DNA of 64,000 nt from Candidatus Saccharimonadota bacterium (GCA_046350755.1 JAXLZV010000001.1:406372-470371); one strand, 5' to 3'; numbered from the stretch's first letter, positions 26,808 through 50,322 are shown. The notes: a model not told the origin generated them from the letters alone. A program made the numbers and translations.

Positions 26808-26889
26808 AGTTACTTCTTATTCTACCGAAGCGTAAGCGATAAAAGAAGGGGGCTACTGTAGCTTCACCTCAATCACGATCTATAAAATA

Positions 26890-29193
26890 TCAAGAAACAT
26901 AACGACTATGCATCGAAAGTATTTTCAAGCCAAGCCATAATCCAGACAAAGTGAGCATAATTATGGTAATCACATACCGCCACACACTCTCCCCCGTCGG
27001 CGCCAAACTCGTCGTCGCCAGTCCCACGGGATCTATCACCGTGCCATTGACGAGTCCATCTTGGTCGAGTGGTCCACCGTCAGTGATTTGGTACGTGAGC
27101 TTGAGCATAGACTTACCGTTGTAGTCTTCTCGGGTAATGGTAGCGCCTGGGATGTCGGAGTAGGTTTTGGAGTCTGTCTTGTACTTTCGAGCCGTGTAGT
27201 CAGAAGGGTTACCGGGGAGATCGTAGTAGAGAGTGACGGTCTTAGTAGCTCCGGGGGTGGTGGTGAATTGGAAGGATGTGAGACCAGCCGGATAGCTACC
27301 AGCAGAATCTTTGGGGAGAGACTTGGGATCGATGGCTGAGACGGTAGGACTGGTCACATCACCGGGGAGGACGAGAGTGACGGTCGAACCTTTGACGGGG
27401 TCGGGGTAGGTTAAGGGTTGGCCGGTATTGCCGCCACCATCAGTAGACTGACAGTTGTCGGTAGAGACGTCGTGGTCGCAGAGGATGTCGATAGACCCTG
27501 ATGCCGGCAGGGCAACATAGAGCCTACCATTAGGTCCAACATCCATGCCATAAGGATAATACCGATTTCCTGAAATATCCCTCGCTTCATTACTGTACAC
27601 AGTCTGGTAGATCCCATTTCTATCAAATTTTTGAATACGACCACCTCCGTCTTGCAAAACATCAGAGGCATATATATCTCCACTATTACTTACTGCAATG
27701 CCAAGTAAATAATTAAATTCTCCAGCCGTCGACCCTTCTACACCAAGCTTCATTAAGAAATTGCCGGAGCTATCAAATTTTTGAATGCGGTGATTGCTAG
27801 TATCTCCAACGTACAAATTATCTTGGTTGTCTACCGAAAGGTAAGCCGGTCCATCAGTAGCATCAAATTGACCATTACCGGAACCTTTTGAGCCAAACTG
27901 ATTGAGTAATGTACCCGAACTAGAATACTTATATATTTGACTCGCCGCTTGATTAAACCAGTAAACGTTATCTTGCGAATCGGCAGCAATACCAAAACCC
28001 TCCTCTGGTAGATTCCACGCATCTAGTGTTTGGCCACCATAATTCAACTTTTTCAGCTTTAACAAACCTCCGTCTGCCGCTGCAACTGTATATATATAAT
28101 TTGGTGAAGTCGTGACCATGTAATCAATTTCGGTATTTGATGTCCACGTATCTAGGAACTGACCAGTAAGGCTATACGACACTAATCCTACATCGCCTTC
28201 AAGAAATGGTATATATAATTTATTTCCATGAACTTTAAGAGTATATGCAGTAATAAGATCTTGATTCGTAACGCCGCCAATAATGCTTACAAAATTGCCT
28301 AATGCATCGAACTTTTGAATTCTATTATTATAGGTATCTGCAACATAAATATTGGCACTTGAATCAATCGCTATTCCCCTTGGAGTATCAAACAGGCCCT
28401 CAACTTCACCAATTGAGCCGAACTGCGATTGATATACTCCAGAGCTGTTGAATTTTTGGACACGCGTATTATCTAAAACAAATATATTACCTGTACCGTC
28501 AATTGAAATGCCCGTGGCACCAGAAAATTGCCCATCGCCAGAGCCCTCGGACCCAAATTGCGATTGATATACTCCAGAGCTGTTGAATTTTTGGATGTCG
28601 CTGCTGGTTACAACATAAATGTCGCCATTCAAATCTAGATCTAAGCTATCGGCAGATGCCTCAAATTGTGATTGGTACACACCAGAACTATCAAATATTT
28701 GGACACGATTATTGCCCGTGTCGGCAACGAGCATACTTCCATCGGATTTAATGACTAAGTCACGTGGTAAATTTAACTCACCATTACCGCTACCATAAGA
28801 ACCAAACTGACTCAGATAATTACCCTGACTATCAAACTTTTGAATGCGATGATTATTTGTATCAGCCACATATAGATTGTCTGCAGAATCGGTTGCAATA
28901 CCGTAAGAATATCCAAACTGCCCATCACCAGTGCCGGCAGCTCCAAACATCAGCAGATAATTACCAGAGCTGTCATATTTAATAACACGCCTATGGTTAC
29001 CATCAAACACGTAAATATTATCTTGAGTATCAAGAGCTACATCTTGAGCTTCACTGATTGGGGGTGAGCTATACCCCCCAATATGCCCGATATTAGTAAT
29101 GCCAGTCGCAGCGTGAGCATGACTTGAGAGTGCGAGCATAGCTACTGCAGCAATAGTCAGGGCTGAAAAAGCTTTGGTGAGCTTGGTAATCAT
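26890..29193 (-). CDS. NHL-repeat beta-propeller surface protein, shared C-terminal module + LAPTG sorting signal
   Basis: Signal peptide; repeated YVADTNNHRIQKFD NHL repeats; C-terminal YPAGLTSFQFTTTPGATKTVTLYYDLPG...LAPTG-TM. Confidence 0.8.
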   Translation of the reverse strand: MITKLTKAFSALTIAAVAMLALSSHAHAATGITNIGHIGGYSSPPISEAQDVALDTQDNIYVFDGNHRRVIKYDSSGNYLLMFGAAGTGDGQFGYSYGIATDSADNLYVADTNNHRIQKFDSQGNYLSQFGSYGSGNGELNLPRDLVIKSDGSMLVADTGNNRVQIFDSSGVYQSQFEASADSLDLDLNGDIYVVTSSDIQKFNSSGVYQSQFGSEGSGDGQFSGATGISIDGTGNIFVLDNTRVQKFNSSGVYQSQFGSIGEVEGLFDTPRGIAIDSSANIYVADTYNNRIQKFDALGNFVSIIGGVTNQDLITAYTLKVHGNKLYIPFLEGDVGLVSYSLTGQFLDTWTSNTEIDYMVTTSPNYIYTVAAADGGLLKLKKLNYGGQTLDAWNLPEEGFGIAADSQDNVYWFNQAASQIYKYSSSGTLLNQFGSKGSGNGQFDATDGPAYLSVDNQDNLYVGDTSNHRIQKFDSSGNFLMKLGVEGSTAGEFNYLLGIAVSNSGDIYASDVLQDGGGRIQKFDRNGIYQTVYSNEARDISGNRYYPYGMDVGPNGRLYVALPASGSIDILCDHDVSTDNCQSTDGGGNTGQPLTYPDPVKGSTVTLVLPGDVTSPTVSAIDPKSLPKDSAGSYPAGLTSFQFTTTPGATKTVTLYYDLPGNPSDYTARKYKTDSKTYSDIPGATITREDYNGKSMLKLTYQITDGGPLDQDGLVNGTVIDPVGLATTSLAPTGESVWRYVITIIMLTLSGLWLGLKILSMHSRYVS

Positions 29194-30401
29194 TTCTGCA
29201 AGGCCTTTCGACTCACCCAGACACCACCGGCAATGAGAGTAATTACGCCAAGCATATACGCGGAGAGATTAGTGCCGGTGTTGGCCAAACTGGTAGTCGC
29301 TAGTCCCACGGGATCAATCACGGTGCCATTGGCGAGTCCGTCTTGGTCGAGTGGTCCACCGTCAGTGATGTTGTAGGTCAGTTTAAGCATAGATTTGCCG
29401 TTGTAGTCTTCACGGGTGATGGTAGCGCCTGGGATGTCGGAGTAGGTGCGAGTTGCAGAGTTATACTTCCGAGCGGTGTAGTCAGAAGGGTTACCGGGGA
29501 GATCGTAGTAGAGGGTAACGGTCTTGGTAGCACCGGGGGTGGTGGTGAATTGGAAGGATGTGAGACCAGCGGGATAACTGTAGGCAGAGTCTGCCGAGAT
29601 AGCACTAGCAGCAATAGGGATAATTTGGGGATTGGTGACATCACTGGGGAGGATGAGAGAGACCGGTTTATTGTTAGAAGTACTACCAGTAAGGGGCTGG
29701 GGCGAGCAGTTAGCGTCATCATACGTCAGTTGGACCGACTGTATGGTTGTTTGTGCAATTGTAGTTGATCCGTTAAACCAGTGCTGCACGTAGATCCCTA
29801 GCGTATCTCCTGGAATATACGTGCTCAAATCCCAGGTAGCATCAAGCTGACCGGCTAATCCAAGTGCAGCCGGGAATTCACCGTTATGACCTACTCCACG
29901 ATCAACTGCTGGAGTAGCAAATGGTGCTGGAAACCAAGTATCTAGATCTTCGCCTTTACCATCATTAATTGTGTAATTACTCCTAAATACTAGGCCATCT
30001 GAGCCGCCATATAGTGCAAGAAAAAGCCCGCTCAAAGGTGTTTCATTTTGAGTTTGCGTATCGGTAATAAGCCTCATTGATTGTATTTGCGCACCGTTAC
30101 AGAGAGTCGGCATCGTTATGTGCCACGTATAGACCCAGGGACCGGGTGTATTATTCGAATCAAGACTGTCAGATTGTGTGGTCGTAGTATTTAAGGGTTC
30201 TTTTAACTCCACACCTGTATCGGTTGCCCTTATACCGCCTGCGGTAATATATGGATCGTCATTTGCAATTGTAGTATTGAGCTGAATTGTTTGAGATGCG
30301 GCATGGGTAGGAGCAGCCGCTACTAACATGCCGGTACCGCAGAGTATGGCAAACAATCCAACAGCCGCAATGCGGCGGAAAGCCCTCTGCTTACTTCTCA
30401 T
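29190..30401 (-). CDS. secreted surface protein, shared C-terminal module + LANTG sorting signal
   Basis: Signal peptide; C-terminal module and LANTGTNLSAYMLGVITLIAGGVWVSRKALQK tail; 4-nt overlap with the downstream gene. Confidence 0.7.
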   Translation of the reverse strand: MRSKQRAFRRIAAVGLFAILCGTGMLVAAAPTHAASQTIQLNTTIANDDPYITAGGIRATDTGVELKEPLNTTTTQSDSLDSNNTPGPWVYTWHITMPTLCNGAQIQSMRLITDTQTQNETPLSGLFLALYGGSDGLVFRSNYTINDGKGEDLDTWFPAPFATPAVDRGVGHNGEFPAALGLAGQLDATWDLSTYIPGDTLGIYVQHWFNGSTTIAQTTIQSVQLTYDDANCSPQPLTGSTSNNKPVSLILPSDVTNPQIIPIAASAISADSAYSYPAGLTSFQFTTTPGATKTVTLYYDLPGNPSDYTARKYNSATRTYSDIPGATITREDYNGKSMLKLTYNITDGGPLDQDGLANGTVIDPVGLATTSLANTGTNLSAYMLGVITLIAGGVWVSRKALQK

Positions 30402-30499
30402 GCTTCTATCTTAACAAAGCTGGAGATCTGCGACAATAAAACAACAAGTCAATTCTACAGTCAAGCTGTTGTCTCATCATCCCTTTGAGCCAGCTACAG

Positions 30500-31447
30500 T
30501 TAAGGGCTGGGTGTTGACTGCGGGGAGACATCCGGCGATTCGGTCGGTGAAGGCGTGGATGGTGACGCCGTGGGCGATGGTGACGACGGCACAGGCTTCG
30601 GGCTCGGCTTAGGTACTTTCGGAGACTGAGATGGCGAAAAGTTTGGCAACTTAAAGAGTAGCTTACGAAGCTGCTCGGCTTGTGCTGGTGTCAGCGGCTT
30701 AGACGGTGTAGTCCCCTTAGCTATCGGTGCATTTGGAGCTTGTTGTGACTTACCCGACGTTGACTGTTGCCATTTCTCTGGGCCATCCTTGGTGGTAGCC
30801 TCGATCACAATCCGCCCATCAGCCGAGCCACCCAGCGAGCAGCTATAAAGTGTTAGCTTCGAGGTTTCGCTGGGCGCCTCGATTTCCGTCGCATTCGGCT
30901 TCACACTATACTTCTTTGTCACCGTGTAGGTATACCATTTACCCTTGAAGAATATCCGCATCGTATCACCCTCTTTGAGCTTGTCCAGGTTATAAAATGG
31001 TGAACGTTTCTTCGTCTCGGCTGGCGTGGTACCAATACTAAAACGATGGGCTGAGAGGATGAAGTTACCTCCCTGCTCTGGATCGCCACGATCCGGATAA
31101 CGGTGCCACGAGCCCTTATCAAGCTCCTCTGGACCGCCGGTGAAGAATGGTACCTCAAGATTAATTTTCTCGATTTGGATGCGATCGCGATTATCAGTTG
31201 CATCGTCGGCTGTATTCAGATCGATCTCCGACTTACCAGCCAGTATCGGCAGCTGTGGGGTAAGCAACAAGTACGCCATATAGAGACCAGCTGCAATTAA
31301 GCCGATCGAAAGGGCTAACAGGAGTCCTCGCTTGCGCTTGGATACTTTTCTGGCAGGTCGATGTGGCAGTCCTGCGCCGGATTGATCATTTGGCAGTATG
31401 TGCCTGCGTTTGCGCGAACGAAAAAGCTGCGGTTTCTTTACTTTCAT
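30500..31447 (-). CDS. sortase (class E-like) with Pro/Ser-rich C-terminal tail
   Basis: N-terminal TM, catalytic His in ILSAHR, TLxTC-type Cys motif LTLYSCS, C-terminal (SP/TP)n tail. Confidence 0.85.
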   Translation of the reverse strand: MKVKKPQLFRSRKRRHILPNDQSGAGLPHRPARKVSKRKRGLLLALSIGLIAAGLYMAYLLLTPQLPILAGKSEIDLNTADDATDNRDRIQIEKINLEVPFFTGGPEELDKGSWHRYPDRGDPEQGGNFILSAHRFSIGTTPAETKKRSPFYNLDKLKEGDTMRIFFKGKWYTYTVTKKYSVKPNATEIEAPSETSKLTLYSCSLGGSADGRIVIEATTKDGPEKWQQSTSGKSQQAPNAPIAKGTTPSKPLTPAQAEQLRKLLFKLPNFSPSQSPKVPKPSPKPVPSSPSPTASPSTPSPTESPDVSPQSTPSP

Positions 31448-31634
31448 AAGCTTTTATTATAACCGATTTTTCTGAGATCGAACTGTGCACAGTAGCCCCG
31501 GTCCAATGGTACTAAGCACGATCATCGCGGTCAGATAGCCAAGCGTCTACTCTACTGTACCATCAGCTTTACCAGCCTCAGCCGTTCGATACAACATATA
31601 TATCAGGCATGCTGCATTATGCTACAGTTTCTAT

Positions 31635-33044
31635 ATGGCTACACCTGCACCGAAAACTGTTTTATTAGTGCCATTTAGCTCGAATGATCAATCACGGATC
31701 CTGATTTGGCAGCATGTCCATAGTTGGCTCACGCAAACTTTGGATTACCCACTCTACCTAGGTGAACATTTTCCTGAAACTCCAGGCACCTATAACCTCA
31801 GTCTCGCCCGCAACCTCGCAGCCCAGAAAGCTGGTGACTGGGAAGTGGCGGTTATCCATGATGCTGACACGGTCATTAACCCACAGCAGATTACCGCCGG
31901 TGTGGCCGCCGCCTATGAAACGGGTGCCGTCACCTACCCCTACACTGAGCGCTGGGAACTAGACTTTACCGGCACGAAAATGTTGCTCAGCGACGAAACC
32001 AGCAAATGGCAGCAATATATGACACCATATGCACACAATCAACCGCTTGGTGGTTGTATCATTGTGCGTCGGGACTTATGGGAGCTAGTACGTGGTTTTG
32101 ACACTGGCTTTGTGGGCTGGGGCCACGAAGACGGCGCGTTTGCGATTGCCTGTCAGGTTTTGAGCGGCAAACTGTTGCAGCGCATCCCCGGCAAATCATT
32201 GCATCTCGAACACGTCTTGGCACCGGCCAAGCGACCAGACAATCCTATCTATCGTGCTAATAAGGCACGCATCGACCAATATATACAGGCTGGCGACCAG
32301 CCGAATGGGTATGAGCTCATCCGGAAACTGCGTGATGCGTCCATTGCAACCGATCAAGCAAGCGGTATTCACTGGTCACCAAATGAATCTGAAAACAAGG
32401 GCATGAATACCACCACTGCCCTCATGCTCTTGCGCGATGTAGCGGCAGTACTCGAGAAGTATCAGTGTACTCATTGGCTGAGTGATGGCACCTTGCTTGG
32501 TACGATGCGCGAGAATGATTTCATCGCCCATGATGATGATGTCGACCTCGGTGTATGGGCGGCGGACTTTGATATCCGCGTCATCCACGAACTCATCAAT
32601 AGATATGGTTGCAGAATAGTCAGGCTACAAGGCACGCCAGATGACGGTATGATCATCTCCGTACAACGACTTACCGTTCATCTGGATATGTTTTTCTATT
32701 ATCCCCTAGCAAAGTCAGAGAAAGGACATCCGTCAGCAAAAATCTACCACAGCATCTATTTTCTCGAAAAACCTTACAATACATCGAATAAAGCCAGACG
32801 ATACAATTGCGTGTACCCAGATTTCAAACCACTAGTGCGGCGTAGCTTTAAAGGCCATGAGTTTTGGGTACCCGAAAATGCCAAGCAGCATTTGGTCGCT
32901 GCCTATGGTAAGGACTGGAGAAAACCACAGCCAAATTGGGATACCGAGAAAGATCAGCCTAATCTCGTGCGGCATGGCACCGCCAGTGATATGGCAGCCG
33001 ACCGACAGCAGGTTGAACAGTTTCTCAAAATACGTCGACTATGA
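31635..33044 (+). CDS. bifunctional GT-A glycosyltransferase / LicD-family phosphotransferase fusion (copy 1)
   Basis: N-terminal GT-A: HDADTV (DxD), GGCIIVRRDLWELVRGFDTGFVGWGHEDG. C-terminal LicD: WLSDGTLLGTMRENDFIAHDDDVDLGVWAADFD. Confidence 0.75.
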   Translation: MATPAPKTVLLVPFSSNDQSRILIWQHVHSWLTQTLDYPLYLGEHFPETPGTYNLSLARNLAAQKAGDWEVAVIHDADTVINPQQITAGVAAAYETGAVTYPYTERWELDFTGTKMLLSDETSKWQQYMTPYAHNQPLGGCIIVRRDLWELVRGFDTGFVGWGHEDGAFAIACQVLSGKLLQRIPGKSLHLEHVLAPAKRPDNPIYRANKARIDQYIQAGDQPNGYELIRKLRDASIATDQASGIHWSPNESENKGMNTTTALMLLRDVAAVLEKYQCTHWLSDGTLLGTMRENDFIAHDDDVDLGVWAADFDIRVIHELINRYGCRIVRLQGTPDDGMIISVQRLTVHLDMFFYYPLAKSEKGHPSAKIYHSIYFLEKPYNTSNKARRYNCVYPDFKPLVRRSFKGHEFWVPENAKQHLVAAYGKDWRKPQPNWDTEKDQPNLVRHGTASDMAADRQQVEQFLKIRRL

Positions 33045-33973
33045 TCCTTGCGTCATCGCCCAACCCACTATCTTTTGTAGAGTTTGAGGTTTTGCGACAG
33101 CTCACGAGTCAGAATGAATATACAGTATCAAGCCTGCCTGACTCACTCATCTTTCTTAATGCACAGGAAATACAGCATGCCGTTCAAGATTTACTCCAAA
33201 AAAAACTTGTGCAGCAGTCACGCCACACACTCCTAGCTACCCCCGCAGCACAGTCTGCCCTCGAGCCATACCGAGTTAAGCGCGCCGTAATTTTAGCAGC
33301 TGGACGGGGTGAACGCTTGCGACCAGAAACAGACACTACCCCAAAACCGATGGTACGAGTACACCACAAGCGACTGATCGAAACACAGCTCGATGCCCTC
33401 GCTGCGGCTGGCATACATGATGTCACGATTGTGCGCGGGTATAAGGGCGAGCTATTCGATGAGCTACTGGAGACATATCCGCACATCAAATTTATCGATA
33501 ACCCTCGTTGGGACAGTACTGGCGGGATTGTTTCAGCCGCACTGGCAGTCGATAAACTAGCTGGAGCCTACCTGATAGAAGGCGATTTTTTCGTAAAAAA
33601 CCCGGCCGTACTCCGACCATACGAATACCGCAGTTCGTATTGTGGTACTCTGGGCGCGACCCACAATGACTGGTACTTTTCGGTCGACCAAGCGCAAAAA
33701 ATTCATGCCCTCGCCTTCGGAGACTCACAACCGAATGACTATAAATTTATCGGTATCATGTACTGGGCGCCACCAGAAGCCGAGCAGCTCAAGCTTGATC
33801 TGCCGACAGTATTACAAACTCCTGCTGGCAAGCAGGGTTTTATTGAGGGTGTCCCATTTAATGCTCAGGCTGGCACCTACAATATCTATGCCAGGCGGCT
33901 ACTGAATGGTGATGTGACAGAAATTGACACACATGCAGAGCTGCTGGCATTGCGAGCTCGTGAGCATCGATAA
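33041..33973 (+). CDS. LicC-like sugar/phospho-alcohol nucleotidyltransferase with ~85-aa N-terminal extension (copy 1)
   Basis: AVILAAGRGERLRPETDTTPKPMV...IVRGYKG (compare LicC AIILAAGLGTRLRP..TENTPKALV); 4-nt overlap with the upstream gene. Confidence 0.75.
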   Translation: MILASSPNPLSFVEFEVLRQLTSQNEYTVSSLPDSLIFLNAQEIQHAVQDLLQKKLVQQSRHTLLATPAAQSALEPYRVKRAVILAAGRGERLRPETDTTPKPMVRVHHKRLIETQLDALAAAGIHDVTIVRGYKGELFDELLETYPHIKFIDNPRWDSTGGIVSAALAVDKLAGAYLIEGDFFVKNPAVLRPYEYRSSYCGTLGATHNDWYFSVDQAQKIHALAFGDSQPNDYKFIGIMYWAPPEAEQLKLDLPTVLQTPAGKQGFIEGVPFNAQAGTYNIYARRLLNGDVTEIDTHAELLALRAREHR

Positions 33974-34160
33974 TTATCCCGAGAGCTACGACCCAGTTTG
34001 GCAATTCCTGCTTATAGATTGATGCAAGGAAAAAATTGACGATGCTTATGGTTAGACGATACTATGAACAGAGTATCAACATACGTGGTTCTACTCCAAA
34101 GCACACGGAGAGATATGAAAAGTAGGTACCGACATAATTAAGTCAGTAAAAAGGGTCTAG

Positions 34161-36050
34161 ATGGCAATCAACACGCATGCGCTGCAGGCGAAATTAACCT
34201 CAAAAGAATTTGCCTTTCTGTGTTTCCTCTTGGTAGTGGTGTTTGTGTATCGACCCGGCCATGCTCACGCCGCGACCATTGATGTCGCGGCTGGCTCAAG
34301 CCTGGCTAATCCTGGCGACAACATCTGTCAAATTAATGAAGCCATCGAAAACGTTAATAGCGGCACACGAACCTATGCTGACTGTATCGAGACTGGCAGC
34401 TATGGAAGCAACGACACTATCAACCTGCCCATCGGTACGATCACAGGTCCTGGCTCTTCTCTAACTAGTGTATACAAGTATAATAATGAGAGCTTAAAAT
34501 TTGTTGGCCAAGGCCGCGGCCAATCAATTCTCGATGGCGCTGGGCTCTACCTGGTCGGTGACGGAAACTACACCGTGCAAGATCTCACCATGACAGGCTA
34601 TGGGGTTGAAGCGCACAACAGCTCCAACCTCACAATTAAGAACGTCGAAATTGATTTATTAAGCGGCAGTGGCCCAGCCATTTTGGCCGATGCCAGCAAT
34701 GTCGACATCCAGGACAGCTACTTCCATAGTATGCTCCCCAATGGTTCAGGCTATGCGCTTGTTAACTTTGAGGCCTTCAATAACAACACTTTCACGATGA
34801 ACCGCACCACCCTGAGCGATGCCGGTCAAGGTTTGCTGCTACTGCTTTCAGGCAGTGGCTTGGAGGATGCGGCTAGTGCAACTATTACTAATAGCACTTT
34901 CACCGACCTGACCGGCTTGGGCGGCCTCGATGGCAGTGGCTTTTTCTCTACTGCAACCGGTATATCTGCTGGGGCTATAACCTACGGCAGTGGCAGTGTT
35001 ACCCTCAACTACACCACCACCAATAACACCTTTAGTAACATCACCAACAGCGATAACGGCTTCGTTAAGGCCGCGGCAATTCGGGAAGCTTCGTATTTTG
35101 AGGGCAGCGGAGCCGCCACCGTTAATCACACTGCACACAACGATCTGTATGCAGTGGGTAATGGCAGTAGTGCAGTCAATTACAATCGCTTCGACATATC
35201 CGCTTTACTTGGTTCAGGCTCCGGCTCCAACGGCAGCTATACTACCACCAGTAACGGTGGGAATGTCTCGAGTGACAATTCGTTCGCAAGCTACCTGACC
35301 AACCCCATGGACAAGCACAATGAGACCTCGCTGGCATCATTCTTGGGTGTCTTGACTGACAATGGTGGCTCAGCGCCTACCCTCGCACTGACTGAAGGCT
35401 CACCCGCCATTGATGCTGGGACCAATGTTGGTGGTATGACGACTGACCAGCGGGGTGCCACGCGACCACAAGGGAATGCCTTCGATGCCGGTGCCTATGA
35501 GTCAGCTTTCTCGGTTGCCTTTCCGACCCTGACCTACCCCGACCCCATCAAAGGCTCGACCGTCACCCTCGTCCTCCCCGGTGGTGTGACCAATCCAACG
35601 GTTGGAGCGGTAAATTACACGACACTTCCCAAAGACGGAGATAACAAGTATCCGGCTGGTCTGACGACCTTCACCTTCACCACCACTCCTGGTGCGACCA
35701 AGGCCGTCACCCTCTACTACGATCTCCCCGGTAGTCCAGCTGACTACACAGCTCGGAAGTACAACACTACGACCAAGCTGTATAGCGATATCCCGGGAGC
35801 TACCATCACCCGCGAAGACTACAACGGTAAGAGTATGCTGAAGCTCACTTACTCCATCACTGATGGTGGCATCCTCGACCAAGACGGTACGGTCAATGGC
35901 ACGATTGTGGACCCCGTGGGGCTGGCCACCACCAACCTGGCGGATACCGGGATGAATGCGAAGCTGTTGTCTGTCCTGGCAGCTGGCCTGCTGGCACTGG
36001 CCACATCCATCATGGTGCTGGCAAGTCGACTTGATCGTCGCTTGAGGTAG
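34161..36050 (+). CDS. sortase-anchored beta-helix surface protein with CSLREA-like motif, shared C-terminal module + LADTG
   Basis: Signal peptide; ICQINEAIENVN; N-x-T/S-rich beta-helix repeats; C-terminal module; LADTG-TM-RRLR. Confidence 0.75.
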   Translation: MAINTHALQAKLTSKEFAFLCFLLVVVFVYRPGHAHAATIDVAAGSSLANPGDNICQINEAIENVNSGTRTYADCIETGSYGSNDTINLPIGTITGPGSSLTSVYKYNNESLKFVGQGRGQSILDGAGLYLVGDGNYTVQDLTMTGYGVEAHNSSNLTIKNVEIDLLSGSGPAILADASNVDIQDSYFHSMLPNGSGYALVNFEAFNNNTFTMNRTTLSDAGQGLLLLLSGSGLEDAASATITNSTFTDLTGLGGLDGSGFFSTATGISAGAITYGSGSVTLNYTTTNNTFSNITNSDNGFVKAAAIREASYFEGSGAATVNHTAHNDLYAVGNGSSAVNYNRFDISALLGSGSGSNGSYTTTSNGGNVSSDNSFASYLTNPMDKHNETSLASFLGVLTDNGGSAPTLALTEGSPAIDAGTNVGGMTTDQRGATRPQGNAFDAGAYESAFSVAFPTLTYPDPIKGSTVTLVLPGGVTNPTVGAVNYTTLPKDGDNKYPAGLTTFTFTTTPGATKAVTLYYDLPGSPADYTARKYNTTTKLYSDIPGATITREDYNGKSMLKLTYSITDGGILDQDGTVNGTIVDPVGLATTNLADTGMNAKLLSVLAAGLLALATSIMVLASRLDRRLR

Positions 36051-36092
36051 GCGCGCCGTACATAGGGGTGGGATGTGTGATACAGTTTCTCT

Positions 36093-37499
36093 ATGACTCC
36101 TACATCACCAAAAACAGTCCTTTTGGTGCCATTCAGCTCACCTGAGCCGTCGCGAGTTCTCATCTGGCAACATGTCCGGAAGTGGCTCGAGCAAACTTTG
36201 GATTACCCGCTCTACGTCGGAGAGCATTTTCCCGAATCGACTGAGACCTACAACCATAGCCTAGCTCGTAACCTTGCGGCCCAGAAAGCTGGCGACTGGG
36301 AAGTAGCGGTTATCCATGATGCTGACACAGTGATTAACCCAAAGCAAATTACCGTTGGTGTAGCCGCCGCCTATGAAACTGGCGCTATTACCTATCCCTA
36401 CGACGAACGCTGGGAGCTCGACACCACTGGCACCAAGATGTTCCTCACTGATACAACCAGCAACTGGCAACAACACATGACGCAATATACTCGTGATGTT
36501 CCACTCGGTGGCTGCATGATCATCCGACGAGATCTTTGGGAACTAGTACGTGGTTTTGACACTGGCTTTGTGGGCTGGGGCCACGAAGACGGTGCGTTTG
36601 CGACTGCCTGTCAGGCGTTGGATGGCTGGAGGCTCTTACGCATTCCCGGCAAATCATTTCATCTCGAGCACGTCTATGCACCGGCAAAAAACCCAGACAA
36701 TCCAATCTATCGCGCTAATAAGGTGCGGATCGACCGATACATGCAGGCTGGCGACCAGCCCAATGCTCACGTGCTCATCCAAAAACTACGCGATGAATCA
36801 ATTCCTACCGACCTAGAGCATGGCATCATGTGGTCAATACCCCAATCCGACGATAAGAAAATGCACCAAGCGCTCGCCTTCATGCTCCTACGCGACATTG
36901 CTAGCGTGCTCGAGAAATATCAGTGCACCTATTGGCTGAGTGATGGCACCTTGCTTGGTGCGATTCGAGAAAATGATTTCATCGCCCACGATAACGACGT
37001 TGACCTCGGGGTGTGGGCGGCCGACTTTGATGTCCGGGTTATTCACGAACTGCTACATAGATTTGGTTGTAGATTTGGCAGACTCCAGGGTAAGCCTGAT
37101 GACGGCATGCTGATCACGCTCCAACGAGCGGGCGTACATCTCGATCTGTTTTTTTATTATCCTCTCAAAAATTCAACTATTTCTGAAAAATCAGCAATCT
37201 ATTGCAGTAGTTATATGCTGCTAAAGCCCTACGACTCGTCAAATAAAGCCAAGCGTTATGACTATCTCTACCCAGATTTCAAACCACTAGTGCGTCGCAG
37301 CTTGAAAGGTCATAATTTTTGGGTACCCAAAAATGCCAAGCAACATTTAATTGCTGCCTATGGTAAGAACTGGCGCACACCACAGCCAAACTGGGACACC
37401 ATGAAAGACCAGTGCAACATTAAGTCTCACGGTATTGTGAAAGATATGGCGGCCGAGCGACAGGCAATCGAAGAGTATTTACAGTTACGTCGCGCATGA
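36093..37499 (+). CDS. bifunctional GT-A glycosyltransferase / LicD-family phosphotransferase fusion (copy 2)
   Basis: Paralog of 31635-33044 with identical motifs and stretches of near-identical nucleotide sequence. Confidence 0.75.
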   Translation: MTPTSPKTVLLVPFSSPEPSRVLIWQHVRKWLEQTLDYPLYVGEHFPESTETYNHSLARNLAAQKAGDWEVAVIHDADTVINPKQITVGVAAAYETGAITYPYDERWELDTTGTKMFLTDTTSNWQQHMTQYTRDVPLGGCMIIRRDLWELVRGFDTGFVGWGHEDGAFATACQALDGWRLLRIPGKSFHLEHVYAPAKNPDNPIYRANKVRIDRYMQAGDQPNAHVLIQKLRDESIPTDLEHGIMWSIPQSDDKKMHQALAFMLLRDIASVLEKYQCTYWLSDGTLLGAIRENDFIAHDNDVDLGVWAADFDVRVIHELLHRFGCRFGRLQGKPDDGMLITLQRAGVHLDLFFYYPLKNSTISEKSAIYCSSYMLLKPYDSSNKAKRYDYLYPDFKPLVRRSLKGHNFWVPKNAKQHLIAAYGKNWRTPQPNWDTMKDQCNIKSHGIVKDMAAERQAIEEYLQLRRA

Positions 37500-38449
37500 A
37501 TGCCGCCACAACAGATCAAAACCTATCGTATGCTACATTCGAAGTGTTACAGTATGCCGTCACCCAAGACGGAGTAGATCCGGCCGATAGTAGCCATGAG
37601 ACCTTGGGTCTAAGTAAAACCGATAGAGATTTCGCCATCAAACAGCTTATTCATAAAGGATTGTTGCGTAAGACCGGCCGCATCCTCCGAGCCACCGCCG
37701 CCGCACAGTCGGCCCTCGAGCCATACCGAGTAAAGCGCGCCGTAATTTTAGCAGCCGGACGTGGTGAACGTCTGCGACCAGAAACCGACACTACCCCAAA
37801 ACCAATGGTACACGTACACAGTAGACGTCTCATCGAAACGCAGCTTGATGCTCTGGCCGCCGCTGGCATCCGTGACATCACAATTGTACGTGGGTATAAG
37901 GGCGAGCTGTTTGATGTGTTGTTGGAGACATATCCGCACATCAAGTTTATCGATAATCCTCGTTGGGACAGTACTGGAGAGATTATCTCGGCATCGTTAG
38001 TTATCGACTATCTCGCTGGCGCCTACCTCATCGAAGGTGATTTGTATATTCGCAACCCGGCCGTGCTGCGACCATACGAGTATCGCAGTTCATGGTGCGG
38101 AAAGCCCGGCGCGACCCACAATGACTGGTACTTTTCGGTCGACCAGAAGCAAAAAATTCACGCCCTCGCTTTTGGAAATACACAAGGTCAGCACGACTAC
38201 ACGTATGTTGGTATTGAATACTGGGCACCCCCAGAAGCCCGCCAGCTCAAGTTTGATCTGCAGACAGTATTACAAACTCCAGCTAACCAGCAAGGCTTTA
38301 TTGAATCTATCCCGTTTGATCCCATATATGGTACCTACAATATCTATGCCAGGCGATTGCTAGATGGTGATGTTACAGAAATCGACACACATGCAGAGCT
38401 GCTGGCATTGCGGGATCGTGAGCATCGCGAACCAGCTTTTCGGCCATAA
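37496..38449 (+). CDS. LicC-like nucleotidyltransferase with N-terminal extension (copy 2)
   Basis: Paralog of 33041-33973; AVILAAGRGERLRPETDTTPKPMV; divergent N-terminus FEVLQYAV...LSKTDRDFAIKQLIHKGLL (wHTH-like). Confidence 0.75.
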   Translation: MNAATTDQNLSYATFEVLQYAVTQDGVDPADSSHETLGLSKTDRDFAIKQLIHKGLLRKTGRILRATAAAQSALEPYRVKRAVILAAGRGERLRPETDTTPKPMVHVHSRRLIETQLDALAAAGIRDITIVRGYKGELFDVLLETYPHIKFIDNPRWDSTGEIISASLVIDYLAGAYLIEGDLYIRNPAVLRPYEYRSSWCGKPGATHNDWYFSVDQKQKIHALAFGNTQGQHDYTYVGIEYWAPPEARQLKFDLQTVLQTPANQQGFIESIPFDPIYGTYNIYARRLLDGDVTEIDTHAELLALRDREHREPAFRP

Positions 38450-38471
38450 CCTTTTCCCAGCACATATCTAT

Positions 38472-41400
38472 CTACAAAACTGATAGTTTTGTAGACGCGA
38501 GAGTGAGGCCAAGGCCTGCGAGGATGAGAGAGCCCATGGCGCAGAGATACGCCCAAGTACTCTCCCCCGTCCCCGCCAAACTCGTCGTCGCCAGTCCCAC
38601 GGGGTCCACAATCGTGCCATTAGCAGTGCCGTCTTGGTCAAGTGCTCCACCGTCAGTGATGGAATAAGTGAGTTTGACGGCGTGTTGGCCACCGATCGTG
38701 ACGTCGGTGAGGGCGGCTCCGGGAATATCTGAGTAGGTGCGACTGGTCGCATTGTACTTGCGAGCTGTGAATGAGTTTGCTCGCGCATCGGTATAGAAGT
38801 AGAGTTCTACGGGGATAGTAGCTCCTGGAGTCGTGGTAGCGGTGAAAGAGACGAAGCCTAGAGGATAGTCTTTCCCCTTATCTTGGGTTGAGAAGGAGCG
38901 AGCTTGTTCAATGATAGTGGCATCAATGGTGACACCATTCGGAACTACGAGGGTAATGTAGCGCCCGTCGGCATTGGGGAGTGACGTGACGTTAGATTGC
39001 TGAGCGTCTGGGGTGCCATCATTGTTACCGTCTCCATTGTTGGGAGCTGCGTTTTCGATGGTGTCGGGGATGGTGTCGGTGTCGGAGGAAGTAGGGGCAG
39101 CACCGTATATCAGATTAAAAATATTGTTAGAAGCTATTGAGTAAAGTGGCGTCCCAGTCTGAACAGCCTCAAATAAAGCCTGAATGTCCGGCTCTTGGTC
39201 AAAACTATCATGTATCAGCGCACCACGAAGAGTATTATTGCCTACTGCAAAGTCTGAGGTAGCAATCAGGCTTAAGCTTAAGGTCAGCTCAGTGGTGCTT
39301 GGGAGGACAGCATTACTAAATCGTACCTCGCAGATTACCAGATCTTCAGAGTAAGGAGCGAAGGCAGGAATGGAGTCTACTTGATTCATAGGACCAACAT
39401 CTGCACACCCAGTGGTATATAAATCATTGGGAGAAATAGAAACACTATCATATGTTGTATTGGTGGGAAGGTTGAAGTAAATAATTACTCCATCACCGGC
39501 AAAGTAACCAGGGCCAAGGTTCTTGAGATTCACTTCGTAGTTGGCAGTATCGCCGGATGTAATTGGTTGAGCATTGAGGAGTTTGGCGGTAAGACTGAGG
39601 TCGGTTTGCTCGGGACACGGCAGAGTGAAAGTTCGGTCTTCGCCATAGGCACGACCAGCTGAGTTTTCGGCATAAGCACGGTAATGATATGTGGTGCCAC
39701 ATGTAAGATCGTAAAGGTATGCATTACTATCCGTGTTAACCCCATAATAACTACCAGTACTCGTGGCGCCATAACTATTATCGAGGCCGTACTCGACACC
39801 AGTGCTGGGAATCTCATTACCTTCATCTGTGACCATATACTTAATTCTGGCAGAAGTACCTTGCGAGTTCTCGCGAGTGGCTGAGCCGGTATTGATAACT
39901 GGAAGGCTCGGGCAGGCGGATGTCGTAAAAGTTGCGTCATCCCCATAAGTTACAGCCTCATTGTTTATGGCGTAGGCGTGGTAATGATAAGTAGCGTTAC
40001 AATCCAAATCTGCAATATTAGCGCTGAAATCACCTGAGTTAGTTGTCTGGGTAAATATTTGGATTCGATTATATGTAGTATCGGACAGAATGAGTTGTCC
40101 TTGATTATTCATCGTTAGTCCAACAACGAAATCAAACCCACCAGCGCTCATTGTTTGCTGACCCCATTTGGTGATAAAAGTCCCACTTTCATCAAATATC
40201 TTCATGCGTCGGTTCTCCGTATCAGAAACAAACACATATCCTTGCGGACTTGTAGCCAAGCTTACGGGCAGAATAAACTGACTATCGCCTGAGCCCTGCG
40301 ATCCCCACTTGAGCATAAAGGCTCCATTGTTATCGAACTTTTGAACGCGATTATTGTTGCGATCAGCTACATAGAGATTATTTGAGGTATCAACAGCTAT
40401 CCCATACGGCAGATTAAACTGTCCATCATTACTCCCGAGAGTACCCCATTGGCTAACATATGATCCTGAGCTATTAAACTTCTGGATACGATTATTTTGA
40501 GTGTCGGCGACAAACATATTCCCATTTGAATCCACGGCAATGCCATAGGGGCTTGAGAGCTGTCCATTCCCAGACCCCGACGTGCCAAATTTGCTGATAA
40601 ACATTCCTGAGCTATTAAACTTCTGGATACGATTATTCGCGGTATCAACAACGTATATATTATTTGAAGAGTCGATTGCTAGACCTGTTGGGTTATCGAA
40701 CTGACCATCGCCCGAACCAGACGATCCCCATTGGGTTATATATGAGCCATTGCTATCAAACTTCTGGATACGATTATTATTACGATCAGCTACATAAATA
40801 TTATTTGAGGTGTCAGTGACGACTCCATAGGGGTGACTAAACTGACCATTAAGAGATGGATTGTGACCCCATTGCAAGAGATAGTTACCGCTGTTATCAA
40901 ACTTCTGAATGCGACCATTCTCATTATCACCAACGTATACATTGCCAGAAGAGTCTACCGTAATGCCGCGGGGCCCGGAGGCGAACTGATTATTACCTGT
41001 TCCGACAGACCCCCACTTGAGAATGAAGCTCCCGCTACTATCAAATTTTTGCACATTCGTACCATAAAGATCGAGCACAAAGATATTGCCCGAAGAATCT
41101 ACAACAAGGTTTATAGGTGCAATAAACTGACCATCGCCCGAACCAAAAGATCCCCATTTCAGAATAAAGGCACCATTGCTGGTAAATTTTTGGATACGTC
41201 GATTATCAATATCAACTACATACACGTTATTAGATGAGTCGATAGCTAGGTCAACAATGCTTCCAAATTGCCCATCACCACTGCCCTGCGACCCCCATTG
41301 GGTAAGTAAATTATCATTTGCATCATATTTCTTGATAGTGTGATTATTCGAATCGGCAACATAGATATTATTGGCAGAGTCCACTGTAATACAGCCGGTG

Positions 41401-41951
41401 GCAATATTCAGCTGACGAATAAATGAACCTGATGAATCGTATTTATAGATATGCTGTGAATAACCATCAACAACATACACATTATCCAGCGAGTCCACGG
41501 CTATACAGTTGATAGTGCTAAAGACATTAATGTCTCCCCATGCGGTAATAAAATTCCCAGAAGAATCAAATTTTTGGATACGCCGGTTGTAACTGTCAGC
41601 TGTATAGACATTACCGTTACTGTCGGTTGCAACATCGGTAGCAAACATAAACTGCCCTTGAGCACTTGGGTCATTGCCCCACTGCTTCAAGTATGGATAA
41701 TTTACTGGTACATCTTCATCGGCACTATTGGTATATGTGTTAGTCAAGCCATACTCAAACCCGCGCTTCGTAATCGGACTCGTACCGGCACTGGGTGCTG
41801 AGCCATTGAGAGTTCCCGAGTTCGCGCTTAGATTAGTAGCATTGTTGGTAGTGACGGTCGGAGCCGCGGCATGAGCATGACTTGCGAGTGCGAGTGTGGC
41901 GATGGCTGCAAAGGTTAGCACTGAGAAGGCTTTGGTGAGTTTGGTCATCAT
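38472..41951 (-). CDS. giant NHL-repeat beta-propeller surface protein (1159 aa), variant C-terminal module + LAGTG sorting signal
   Basis: Signal peptide near-identical to that of 26890-29193; many YVADRNNNRIQKFD repeats; LAGTG-TM. Confidence 0.8.
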   Translation of the reverse strand: MMTKLTKAFSVLTFAAIATLALASHAHAAAPTVTTNNATNLSANSGTLNGSAPSAGTSPITKRGFEYGLTNTYTNSADEDVPVNYPYLKQWGNDPSAQGQFMFATDVATDSNGNVYTADSYNRRIQKFDSSGNFITAWGDINVFSTINCIAVDSLDNVYVVDGYSQHIYKYDSSGSFIRQLNIATGCITVDSANNIYVADSNNHTIKKYDANDNLLTQWGSQGSGDGQFGSIVDLAIDSSNNVYVVDIDNRRIQKFTSNGAFILKWGSFGSGDGQFIAPINLVVDSSGNIFVLDLYGTNVQKFDSSGSFILKWGSVGTGNNQFASGPRGITVDSSGNVYVGDNENGRIQKFDNSGNYLLQWGHNPSLNGQFSHPYGVVTDTSNNIYVADRNNNRIQKFDSNGSYITQWGSSGSGDGQFDNPTGLAIDSSNNIYVVDTANNRIQKFNSSGMFISKFGTSGSGNGQLSSPYGIAVDSNGNMFVADTQNNRIQKFNSSGSYVSQWGTLGSNDGQFNLPYGIAVDTSNNLYVADRNNNRVQKFDNNGAFMLKWGSQGSGDSQFILPVSLATSPQGYVFVSDTENRRMKIFDESGTFITKWGQQTMSAGGFDFVVGLTMNNQGQLILSDTTYNRIQIFTQTTNSGDFSANIADLDCNATYHYHAYAINNEAVTYGDDATFTTSACPSLPVINTGSATRENSQGTSARIKYMVTDEGNEIPSTGVEYGLDNSYGATSTGSYYGVNTDSNAYLYDLTCGTTYHYRAYAENSAGRAYGEDRTFTLPCPEQTDLSLTAKLLNAQPITSGDTANYEVNLKNLGPGYFAGDGVIIYFNLPTNTTYDSVSISPNDLYTTGCADVGPMNQVDSIPAFAPYSEDLVICEVRFSNAVLPSTTELTLSLSLIATSDFAVGNNTLRGALIHDSFDQEPDIQALFEAVQTGTPLYSIASNNIFNLIYGAAPTSSDTDTIPDTIENAAPNNGDGNNDGTPDAQQSNVTSLPNADGRYITLVVPNGVTIDATIIEQARSFSTQDKGKDYPLGFVSFTATTTPGATIPVELYFYTDARANSFTARKYNATSRTYSDIPGAALTDVTIGGQHAVKLTYSITDGGALDQDGTANGTIVDPVGLATTSLAGTGESTWAYLCAMGSLILAGLGLTLASTKLSVL

Positions 41952-44221
41952 GTCTGCAGCGCCTTTCGGCTGAGCCAGACACCACCGGCAATGAGAGTAA
42001 TTACGCCAAGCATATACGCGGAGAGATTAGTGCCGGTGTTGGCCAAACTGGTAGTCGCTAGCCCGACGGGATCGACGATCACGCCATTATCAGCACCGTC
42101 ATCATCGAGTTCGCCACCATCGGTGATTGAATACGTCGCGACCAAGGCCTGAGCGGAGCCAACTGTCTGCGAGGCAATGTTCGAGCCAGGCACATCACGA
42201 TACTGGCCGGTGATGTCATTGTATTTACGGAGCGTGAAGGCAGATGGCACGTCTGACACAAACACATACTTCGTAATGTTGACGGTATCACCGCGTGAAC
42301 AGTTGAGACTAAAATCAGTTAGACCATAGGGATAGGCTTTACCAGCATCTTTATTGGTAATAGTCGAAGCGTCAATCGAGGCGACTGTGCCGTTCTCGGA
42401 GCGGCCTTCGGTCACAAACGTCTCCCACTTGCCGGTCGAGTCGATCTCGAAACTGGTGACAGTCGGCTGCAGCCGATCGGCAGTGCCATCATTATTGCCG
42501 TCTCCATTATTAGGGGCGCCATTTTCAACTGAGTCAGCGATACCATCCGAATCAAAGTCACTAGCCGAACCGACAGAGATGTTTTGCGAGAGCTCGCTGG
42601 TTGAGCCGTAGCCAGAGAGTGTCGAGTCGTCGATAGCGGTCGTCGTAGCCGAGAGTGCCTTATTCGTATAGTCTCCTGAGACGGTGAAGGTTGCCGTCTT
42701 ATCTGTACCATTCCCGGTTGAGGCGACGGCACCAAGATATTCCTGTGCCGGCCCGGCACCAAAGACCGTACTCTCGTCGTTGACGAAGAACTCCACGCGG
42801 TACGTATTACTGGGTGAATCAGCTGCATCAAGATCATAGTGAATGGTCAGTTGATTGCCGATCTGCTGAACGGACTTGAGGACTGGTTTATTCATGAGAT
42901 TATTGGGGCCGGTATCGGCATCACCGGTGTCATTGGGTGTGGGGCCTTGACCAGTGAATGAGTCTGGACCATTTTGATTTGGTGCTCCAACATACACCGA
43001 TGTACTGAGATCGATAGCGAGATTACTGTTGCCAAAATTTGGATAATTAAACACCAGCATATCGCTTACTTTGTTACCGAGTATTGAGATATTGGTCGGT
43101 TTTAAAACCATTTGAAAAGCTTGTATATTCATCCCTAAAACCGATATGCCAAGACCACCAACTGCTCGGACTGTATTGCCCTCACCTGATCCAACGCCAC
43201 CAATAAGCACATCGTGAGCCATATAGGTCACAACAATCCCACCACCATTTGTAATGCCGCTATTCTTCTCCCCCGTATAGTCAGTGCCGATGTAGTTACC
43301 TTGGACTTTCGTATCCGATCCGCCGGTAATAGTGATCTGAGCAGTTGTTGAGCCAGAAAGAACATTCATTTGCCCCTGCAATGGCCCACCAACAGTATTA
43401 TTACTACCCGTGTTATCTAGGCTAAAAGTCGTATCAAGGTCAGTTACACCATCTTTGGCGATCCCAAAATAGTTCCCGTACACAAAAGTATTAGTTCCCC
43501 CGATTTGACTGCCAGGACCATAGCTAGTTTTGCTGGCGATGACGTTGCGCTGAGCCGCTGTTGCACCACCGATATACAAATCACTACCACTACTATATGC
43601 AGCAATTGCTTCAGTTTCTTCTCCGTTTGAATTGTAGCGCGATTGCATGCCCGTTATATCAGTGTTGATATAAAGCCCTTCGATCCTAACGTCAGAGGCG
43701 CCATTTACTTCGATCTGCGAATGACCAAAGCCATGGATTGCAATGCCGCGGACCATGCTAGCCCCAGCACCACTGTTAAATAGCAGCCCTTTTTCGCTCC
43801 GATCCATACCCGAGCCATCGAGCTCAATGGTTAGATTGGAGTTGAGCGGAGCTGGTGCAGCCGCGGTATTCGCGCTCGAACCAGGCTGCGAGAAGCCATT
43901 AATATCCACCTGATCATCAACCTTTGGCCAATTACTAGCTGTAGGCGAAATCGTGTGTACCCCACTGCCGGGGATATTGAAATTAACCGTGTCAGCGCCA
44001 ACATTGGCGTTAGCTTCTTCGATCGCCGCACGAAATGTACACTCTCCGGTATTGACCGTCTCACAAATTCCATCCCCTGGATTCGCATCGGCTTCATCAG
44101 TCGTGACGTTGACGACGAACGTGGCTGGTGCGGCATGCGCCGAGTGCGCAAACAAGAAAATCGATGCCAAACTCGTAAGCACCAAATAGACAATTTTTTT
44201 CGGTATCTGTTTAGAGGTCAC
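41948..44221 (-). CDS. sortase-anchored beta-helix surface protein with CSLREA-like motif, shared C-terminal module + LANTG
   Basis: Signal peptide; GICETVNTGECTFRAAIEEANA; 3' end near-identical (DNA level) to 29190-30401. Confidence 0.75.
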   Translation of the reverse strand: MTSKQIPKKIVYLVLTSLASIFLFAHSAHAAPATFVVNVTTDEADANPGDGICETVNTGECTFRAAIEEANANVGADTVNFNIPGSGVHTISPTASNWPKVDDQVDINGFSQPGSSANTAAAPAPLNSNLTIELDGSGMDRSEKGLLFNSGAGASMVRGIAIHGFGHSQIEVNGASDVRIEGLYINTDITGMQSRYNSNGEETEAIAAYSSGSDLYIGGATAAQRNVIASKTSYGPGSQIGGTNTFVYGNYFGIAKDGVTDLDTTFSLDNTGSNNTVGGPLQGQMNVLSGSTTAQITITGGSDTKVQGNYIGTDYTGEKNSGITNGGGIVVTYMAHDVLIGGVGSGEGNTVRAVGGLGISVLGMNIQAFQMVLKPTNISILGNKVSDMLVFNYPNFGNSNLAIDLSTSVYVGAPNQNGPDSFTGQGPTPNDTGDADTGPNNLMNKPVLKSVQQIGNQLTIHYDLDAADSPSNTYRVEFFVNDESTVFGAGPAQEYLGAVASTGNGTDKTATFTVSGDYTNKALSATTTAIDDSTLSGYGSTSELSQNISVGSASDFDSDGIADSVENGAPNNGDGNNDGTADRLQPTVTSFEIDSTGKWETFVTEGRSENGTVASIDASTITNKDAGKAYPYGLTDFSLNCSRGDTVNITKYVFVSDVPSAFTLRKYNDITGQYRDVPGSNIASQTVGSAQALVATYSITDGGELDDDGADNGVIVDPVGLATTSLANTGTNLSAYMLGVITLIAGGVWLSRKALQT

Positions 44222-44227
44222 AAACCT

Positions 44228-44261
44228 ACCCGCTTATGTTGTAATAATAACATAAGCGGGT
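44228..44261. other. perfect 13-bp stem-loop in the intergenic region (possible terminator or processing signal)
   Basis: ACCCGCTTATGTT-gtaataat-AACATAAGCGGGT. Confidence 0.3.
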
Positions 44262-44287
44262 TTAGAATTCTACTTCTTAACTAGAGG

Positions 44288-45715: not shown

Positions 45716-45840
45716 TGCTAATTTCTACAATTAGTATAAATTTAATGAGAATATATAACCATACGACAAATACCGAATATTGTCAAGTAAAAGCGTACAG
45801 GCGTTTGCTTATGCTTGGAGCAGAATTGCCTAAATAAACG

Positions 45841-45862
45841 AAAAGCCCGCATATTAGCGGGC
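45841..45862 (-). terminator. intrinsic terminator downstream of tRNA-Met
   Basis: Minus-strand GCCCGC-UAAUAU-GCGGGC followed by UUUU. Confidence 0.5.
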
Positions 45863-45873
45863 GCTTCGTCTGG

Positions 45874-45946
45874 TGGCTGCGGGTGGAATCGAACCACCGA
45901 CCTTTGGCTTATGAGTCCACTGCTCTAACCCCTGAGCTACGCAGCC
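45874..45946 (-). tRNA. tRNA-Met-like (anticodon CAU, elongator type) with non-canonical anticodon stem
   Basis: GGCUGCG acceptor, D and T arms intact, loop CUCAUAA; anticodon stem GUGGA/GCCAA has only 3 central pairs; encoded CCA. Confidence 0.6.
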
Positions 45947-46037
45947 ATGTACTGTATTATATAACGCTCAAGAGCCTTATGATGTGTTTTTCTACCTATA
46001 TGCAAATGCCCCAGACTAGCTGAGGCGCTTGCTTTGG

Positions 46038-50231: not shown

Positions 50232-50304
50232 TGGGCCCGTAGCTCAGTGGTTAGAGCAGTCGGCTCATAACCGATTGGCCGCTGGTTCAAATCCAGCCGG
50301 GCCC
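50232..50304 (+). tRNA. tRNA-Ile2 (CAU, lysidine-modified) or tRNA-Met
   Basis: GGGCCCGUAGCUCAGUGGUUAGAGCAGUCGGCUCAUAACCGAUUGGCCGCUGGUUCAA.UCCAGC; closely resembles E. coli tRNA-Ile2; tilS present in window. Confidence 0.8.
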
Positions 50305-50322
50305 ACCACTTCACTGAATCAT

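Follow-up and report, generated by a model that had tools for sequence, protein, structure and literature searches.

Five surface protein genes end in one pre-anchor module

A 64,000-nt stretch of a Candidatus Saccharimonadota assembly (GCA_046350755.1, JAXLZV010000001.1:406372-470371), hereafter the window, contains five genes between positions 26890 and 44221 that end with the same C-terminal module. The genes were labeled NHL767, X403, BH629, NHL1159 and CS757 (Table 1). With an adjacent sortase gene they probably form a sortase-dependent surface protein cluster that uses a known pre-anchor domain, with shared DNA that has been patched by past gene conversion. The window has a G+C content of 50.5%, and almost all homologs of its proteins come from metagenome-assembled genomes (MAGs) of Candidatus Saccharibacteria (TM7). 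No earlier description of the cluster was found in the literature on Saccharibacteria sortases and LPXTG proteins, gene conversion, and choice-of-anchor domains. An initial annotation, made from the sequence alone, had proposed the common module and had likened its repeated DNA to surface-antigen variation systems.

All five open reading frames (ORFs) are present where the initial annotation had placed them. Their common C-terminal pattern is YPxGL...ITDGGxLDxDGxxNGxxxDPVGLATTxLAxTG, followed by about 20 hydrophobic residues and a basic end. The module was identified by hidden Markov model (HMM) search as choice-of-anchor U (NCBIfam NF041766, curated cutoff 32 bits). Scores are 61.1 bits for NHL767, 63.9 for X403, 57.6 for BH629, 65.7 for NHL1159 and 58.1 for CS757, all above the cutoff. 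When the five modules were made into an HMM, its matches in the window were these ORFs and no others (E 1e-79 to 1e-91), so the proposal that five genes end in one module holds.

AlphaFold2 models the module as a confident nine-strand beta-sandwich (predicted local distance difference test score, pLDDT, 90.9). The model of whole X403 (pLDDT 85.6) consists of a jelly-roll-like N-terminal domain, the module, and a C-terminal helix at residues 379-402, after the LANTG motif. Foldseek found no significant match in the PDB for either the whole X403 model or the module alone, and a profile search of PDB sequences returned no match. No structure of the NF041766 family has been solved. The N-terminal domain of X403 has no family match.

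The passengers that precede the module differ from gene to gene. NHL767 and NHL1159 match the Pfam NHL family (PF01436) at 135.9 and 243.4 bits, respectively, both past the gathering score and with multiple repeats. BH629 matches choice-of-anchor Q (NF041518) at 79.2 bits, and the N-terminus of CS757 scores 23 bits against the CSLREA model TIGR04214, just under the cutoff of 25. Choice-of-anchor U was also found in about 50 loci of other genomes, nearly all Saccharibacteria, with a module-bearing ORF in 47 of them. Its partners in those loci are NHL, LRR, PD40, lectin-like and beta-helix passengers, and the tails after it are of three kinds: LAxTG with a transmembrane segment and basic end, a short xPNTG without a transmembrane segment, and LPETG with a transmembrane segment and a conserved extension of about 60 amino acids. 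Such variable tails are the defining "choice of anchor" behavior. The xPNTG(LGG) ends without a membrane segment and the LPETG ends with a cytoplasmic extension (YDWxRHRKPL...WHHLRVV) occur in loci L013, L016, L019, L022, L025, L026, L030, L048 and others, and may be uncharacterized sorting signals.

Sorting signals and the adjacent sortase

Each of the five proteins, as read from its sequence, carries the features of a sortase substrate: an N-terminal signal peptide ending AHA|A or a close variant, a C-terminal LPXTG-like pentapeptide, a hydrophobic segment and a positively charged end. The window holds six C-termini with LAxTG, a transmembrane segment and a basic tail, five from the module genes and one from a sixth protein absent from the initial annotation, as were the sortase and the duplicated glycosyltransferase gene pair described below. 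The sixth protein (24424-26412) lacks the module and has no NF041766 match. Its gene is split, with the signal peptide in one ORF and the CSLREA domain and the remainder in another frame, and a GGG run near 26722 marks the shift. A pseudogene, a frameshift variant or an error in sequencing could each explain the split.

The sortase gene lies between X403 and BH629. Its product scores 62.8 bits against PF04203 (cutoff 26.6), and its translation contains LSAHRF, TLYSC and GRIVIE, which supply the catalytic His, Cys and Arg. About 85 further residues at its C-terminus form a Pro/Ser-rich extension. The best NCBIfam class is E (NF033747), with 42.2 bits where the cutoff is 160, and the scores for classes C and D are about as low. 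According to PMC5148588, class E (housekeeping) sortases with LAXTG substrates occur in Actinobacteria, e.g., SrtE1 of Streptomyces coelicolor. The cluster resembles the SrtE1-type arrangement in using LAxTG rather than LPxTG, in placing one sortase gene beside several substrate genes, and in having E as its best class match. It differs in the low class E score, in the Pro/Ser-rich C-terminal tail, and in belonging to a saccharibacterium rather than an actinobacterium. The LAxTG motif thus fits a class E-like specificity, although the score does not place the enzyme in class E. The LAxTG signals and the gene linkage suggest that the neighboring sortase is the transpeptidase that anchors the LAxTG proteins, and it is presumed to be so.

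Extent and identity of the shared DNA

Self-BLASTN of the window, with which a repeat finder agreed, revealed DNA repeats far beyond chance. The modules of NHL767 and X403 are 83% identical over 27002-27381 and 29284-29663 (E 4e-107), and two 266-nt junction blocks, 29104-29369 and 41862-42127, are 82% identical (E 1e-69). Each junction block spans the end of a module, the tail, the overlap with the next gene and that gene's signal peptide. An inverted copy in BH629 (35523-35950) is 76-77% identical to 27011-27421 and 29275-29576. The longest exact match is an 87-nt tract shared by X403 and CS757, which encodes LATTSLANTGTNLSAYMLGVITLIAGGVW; on either side, the two copies run into different sequence. 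No other exact match between modules exceeds 38 nt.

The initial annotation had described stretches of over 100 nt as nearly identical in several places. That is accurate for one of them, where 29190-29303 and 41948-42061 are 94.7% identical with the 87-nt tract included, but it was overstated elsewhere, where identity is 78-90%. Its second example, 27160-27330 against 29440-29600, is only 79.5% identical in an ungapped alignment (27160-27330 vs 29442-29612), and sub-blocks of this repeat reach 89.6% (27002-27165 vs 29284-29447) and 89.4% (27179-27310 vs 29461-29592). The signal peptide region does repeat as proposed, at 77.8% within the junction (29104-29193 vs 41862-41951), and NHL767 and NHL1159 each overlap the preceding gene by the 4 nt ATGA. 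A duplicated two-gene block had also been proposed. DNA-level sharing between the two gene pairs is confined to the module and the 266-nt junction; the N-terminal domains of X403 (403 aa) and CS757 (757 aa) are unrelated and the bodies of NHL767 and NHL1159 share just 32-36% protein identity.

X403 is a mosaic

Codon-level comparisons of core and tail showed that segments of X403 have different closest relatives. Its module core is 87% identical in nucleotide sequence to that of NHL767, with a synonymous divergence (dS) of 0.50. Its tail is 93% identical to that of CS757 (dS 0.22). The cores of X403 and CS757 are saturated for dS and share 50% amino acid identity. X403 is therefore a mosaic with a core like NHL767 and a tail like CS757. 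MaxChi applied to the triplet X403/NHL767/CS757 placed a breakpoint at 29301-29304 (chi-square 136, permutation p<=1e-4). Informative sites linking X403 to NHL767 and to CS757 number 123:13 upstream of this breakpoint and 13:82 downstream. A second mosaic test with NHL767, X403 and NHL1159 was also significant; because its breakpoint coincides with the X403 replacement it was not counted as independent evidence.

Across the 30 codons around the exact tract dS is only 0.04 (1 synonymous difference in 24.7 sites). In the flanks it is 1.6 for the next 8 codons, 1.8 for the 22 codons before, and 1.0 in the downstream signal peptide region. The 87-nt tract is interpreted as a recent gene conversion tract inside an older transfer. 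An RNA element was ruled out as the cause of the identity, with a folding z of 0.18 and no Rfam match.

Orthologous loci and concerted evolution

Locus L004, from another species (the same species as L011), carries a sortase gene, an X403 ortholog that is 80% identical (X401), and an NHL gene in the same order as the window. The C-terminus of X401, LADTGDNLYVYLAS...KQKS, is unrelated to the tail of X403. The L004 NHL gene starts MTYTTLTPTKRF..., has no ATGA overlap, and is unrelated at its start to NHL767. Nucleotide alignment between L004 and the window ends at 29289. By this comparison, the junction at 29104-29369 has undergone replacement. The CS757 ortholog in L013 carries the tail sequence GGVWLSRKAL(K/Q), and so does a different gene in L011. 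Because this tail type is kept on the CS757 ortholog and occurs in L011, the CS757/NHL1159 junction is the more likely donor, and CS757 is the likely source of the X403 tail.

Module phylogeny was examined with a neighbor-joining tree of 18 module cores (91 codons), which resolved three old subtypes. Subtype 1, which includes X403, NHL767 and BH629, groups by genome: the X403 and NHL767 modules of the window pair with 98% bootstrap support, as do G_X414 and G_547 of species G with 99%. In species B, 3/4 copies group at 84%, and the fourth (B_X401) is their sister without bootstrap support of at least 60%. The NHL1159 module (subtype 2) pairs with its ortholog B_1058 from L011 (99%), and the CS757 module (subtype 3) with its orthologs (100%). 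Concerted evolution is thus confined to one subtype. In a four-taxon comparison of the module, 24 informative sites favored within-genome pairing and 18 favored orthology; 13/18 of the latter sit in the first 31 nt, which form a gene-specific linker. Core dS between X403 and NHL767 is 0.50, compared with 0.83-1.3 across species.

Variation among strains of the same species

The window was compared with 10 conspecific contigs from other samples, which are 98.5-100% identical to it. The independent MAG assembly L001 has the same X403 core, 87-nt tract and NHL767 start, with 0 mismatches over 27049-29810, which argues against an assembly artefact for this copy. None of the 10 contigs shows a swapped junction at a module; most stop within the repeat and none spans the CS757/NHL1159 junction. 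Strains that differ by about 1.3% nearby have identical X403 modules. Exact-protein look-ups of X403, CS757, NHL1159 and the deacetylase described below gave no record, and 39 nt taken from the 87-nt tract had no exact match in Joint Genome Institute (JGI) metagenome contigs. The best match to CS757 in a homolog search was 61% identical, so there is no near-identical copy or chimera in the database searched. Short-read contigs among L060-L066 repeatedly stop at 29411-29541, within the X403 module, which shows that the repeat breaks up MAG assemblies; genes of this kind may be hidden as a result.

Two large deletions were observed. Window positions 31985-43480 are absent in L001 and L062, and 32907-43065 are absent in L060 and L061; each deletion, about 10-11.5 kb, is thus found in two independent assemblies. 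They remove the C-terminus of CS757, NHL1159, BH629, both nucleotidyltransferases, the second glycosyltransferase and a portion of the first. One end of each deletion falls in CS757 and the other in the first glycosyltransferase gene; the breakpoints have 0-4 nt in common and are outside all repeats. A repeat-mediated origin was ruled out on these grounds, and the deletions are illegitimate events.

Dense clusters of single nucleotide polymorphisms (SNPs) occur at 29811-30006, 30752-30830 and 31439-32031 against a background identity of about 99.9%. The first, in the N-terminal domain of X403, has 16 SNPs in 196 nt in L001; the other two are common to L060, L061, L063 and L066. These clusters resemble recombination tracts of imported DNA. 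Natural competence has been reported for Saccharibacteria, and cultured members need several adhesins to grow on host bacteria (PMC10633639). Import fits this reported competence and the ComEC gene that a Pfam scan of flanking ORFs found in the window.

Neighboring genes

The remaining features are collected in Table 1. BH629 lies between two copies of a gene pair encoding a glycosyltransferase/LicD-domain protein and a nucleotidyltransferase. The copies are 74-80% identical in nucleotide sequence with dS of about 1.0-1.3, and their products probably modify a wall polymer. A polysaccharide deacetylase gene (44288-45715) follows the cluster; 15-nt tandem repeats within it (44999-45154) encode a PTTPV-type linker. 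Just past the cluster is a tRNA gene (45874-45946, minus strand; Rfam 65 bits). An inverted similarity of 71 nt (79%) connects 45871-45941 with 50238-50308, and the latter may be a second tRNA.

Table 1. Genes and repeated segments of the cluster. Positions are counted from the first nucleotide of the window.
Feature	Position	Strand	Description
Sixth LAxTG protein (LADTG)	24424-26807	-	Paralog of the CS757 body (BLASTP 40% over 342 aa); ORFs 26409-26807 and 24424-26412
NHL767	26890-29193	-	Signal peptide, NHL-repeat beta-propeller, choice-of-anchor U (~27016-27303), LAPTG signal (26890-27006) with transmembrane segment and basic tail
NHL767 module DNA	27002-27381	-	83% identical to X403 29284-29663; subtype 1 modules homogenized within the genome
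Junction block	29104-29369	-	End of X403 module, tail, ATGA overlap, NHL767 signal peptide
X403	29190-30401	-	Signal peptide, jelly-roll-like N-terminal domain, choice-of-anchor U (~29298-29588), LANTG signal (29190-29288)
87-nt tract, X403 copy	29217-29303	-	Encodes the peptide given in the text
Sortase gene	30500-31447	-	PF04203; H...TLYSC...R motifs; Pro/Ser-rich C-terminal extension
Glycosyltransferase/LicD-domain protein and nucleotidyltransferase genes, copy 1	31635-33973	+	
BH629	34161-36050	+	Signal peptide, choice-of-anchor Q region, choice-of-anchor U (~35643-35927), LADTG signal (35937-36050); inverted relative to the other copies
Glycosyltransferase/LicD-domain protein and nucleotidyltransferase genes, copy 2	36093-38449	+	
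NHL1159	38472-41951	-	Signal peptide, large NHL propeller, further beta domains, choice-of-anchor U subtype 2 (~38589-38876), LAGTG signal (38472-38579)
Junction block	41862-42127	-	CS757/NHL1159; partner of 29104-29369
CS757	41948-44221	-	Signal peptide, CSLREA N-terminal region, beta-helix body, choice-of-anchor U subtype 3 (~42056-42346), LANTG signal (41948-42046)
87-nt tract, CS757 copy	41975-42061	-	Exact match to 29217-29303

A model for the cluster and its alternatives

In our model, each protein consists of a Sec signal peptide and its own passenger (an NHL propeller, a beta-helix/CSLREA region, choice-of-anchor Q, or a jelly-roll-like sandwich), followed by the choice-of-anchor U beta-sandwich of about 100 amino acids with its DGGxLDxDGxxNG loop and by the LAxTG sorting signal. 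The adjacent sortase would cleave at LAxTG and link the proteins to peptidoglycan, where the U domain may serve as a constant stalk or spacer beside the wall and the passengers as adhesins. The shared DNA is paralogous coding sequence of the module, patched by non-allelic gene conversion, presumably through RecA-type recombination. Subtype 1 modules have been homogenized within genomes. The junction block, comprising a tail and the start of the next gene, was copied, most likely from CS757/NHL1159 to X403/NHL767, and a recent tract of about 87-90 nt overlies this older transfer. The breakpoint, the tract with dS 0.04, the junction replaced relative to L004, and the grouping of one subtype by genome support, over evolutionary time, the initial suggestion of repeats as substrates for gene conversion. 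The cluster most probably represents ordinary surface protein family evolution, not a dedicated antigen-switching system.

Some observations weigh against this interpretation. The direction of transfer is drawn from two other species only, and the tree is based on a short alignment. Core dN is 0.06-0.15, indicating strong purifying selection, so part of the core similarity comes from selection and not all identity needs conversion. The CS757/NHL1159 junction was seen in this window alone and is carried by no other assembly. The sortase falls under the cutoff of every NCBIfam sortase class.

An extension of this model appears unlikely. The U/LAxTG end, together with the start of the gene that overlaps it, could be a portable recombination handle that re-pairs adhesin passengers with tails and neighbors, in active low-rate shuffling. 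If this were so, and frequent enough to generate functional surface diversity in natural populations, a reduced genome that lives on other bacteria would possess a rudimentary adhesin-shuffling system, with whole adhesin sets gained or lost.

We also wondered whether the locus is a dedicated surface-variation system, in which passengers and tails are frequently swapped within populations with the module as the handle. The surface protein genes are indeed connected by direct and inverted repeats of 80-100% identity, past exchange between genes is clear, and the locus is structurally polymorphic through its deletions and SNP clusters. Competence, dependence on adhesins and the ComEC gene would also suit such a system. 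However, silent or partial cassettes are lacking: each of the five copies is a whole ORF with signal peptide, passenger and anchor, and the HMM scan of the window found no extra partial modules. Only one exact tract exceeds 38 nt, and the core dS of 0.5 between X403 and NHL767 makes that exchange old. No recombinase, invertase or transposase was found among 29 flanking ORFs, 27 of which have Pfam matches, all to housekeeping or cell-envelope families, and the sole Rfam match in 26000-46000 is a tRNA. No recombinant module junction was seen in the 10 contigs, the X403 module does not vary among strains that have diverged nearby, and the deletion breakpoints avoid the repeats. We consider such a system quite improbable, and the proposed likeness to surface-antigen variation is not upheld.

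It is very unlikely that the genes are simply old paralogs whose DNA similarity reflects purifying selection on the protein without gene conversion. The module is strongly conserved as protein across Saccharibacteria, most blocks are just 76-90% identical, and subtypes 2 and 3 follow orthology, as expected for old paralogs. Selection on the protein does not account for a 30-codon tract with dS 0.04 between flanks of 1.0-1.8, for the sharp breakpoint, for within-genome paralogs that are closer than orthologs, or for the replaced junction. Least probable of all is an assembly artefact in which repeated ends were collapsed or cross-joined into false identity and mosaics: short-read contigs of the species do break in the X403 module and public data offer no independent copy of the CS757/NHL1159 junction, but L001 reproduces the X403 side, each tract copy continues into distinct sequence on both sides, and the concerted evolution pattern recurs in other genomes.

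Significance and comparison with known systems

Saccharibacteria live attached to host bacteria, and the cluster provides concrete candidates for their wall-anchored surface proteins together with a sortase. Domain shuffling and gene conversion, both acting at a constant anchor module, diversify the family, and the content of the cluster varies between strains through large deletions. Because the repeated module breaks short-read assemblies, the adhesin content of Saccharibacteria MAGs is likely under-counted. The results add a lineage of the Candidate Phyla Radiation (CPR) to the range of a domain family and an evolutionary process that were both already known, and do not overturn current understanding.

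In cassette-based antigenic variation, as in Neisseria pilE/pilS, Borrelia vlsE and Anaplasma msp2, gene conversion also acts between repeated surface protein sequences. The present cluster differs in that it has no expression site with a silent archive, what varies in it is unrelated domains, not homologous cassettes, and no population mosaics were found in the 10 contigs. Mosaic or concerted evolution of wall-anchored paralogs is known from streptococcal emm-like genes and Listeria internalins, and gene conversion from Helicobacter babA/babB. Like these, the cluster comprises complete surface protein paralogs with conserved ends, non-allelic exchange of segments, and chimeric genes; unlike them, it exchanges the anchor end and gene junction rather than the ligand-binding part, with no known phenotype switching. 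From other NF041766 proteins of Haft's "choice-of-anchor" class nothing essential differs. All five modules exceed the cutoff, a C-terminal sorting signal comes right after the domain, and relatives vary in the type of tail; here, three old subtypes occur in one cluster and one of them evolves in concert.

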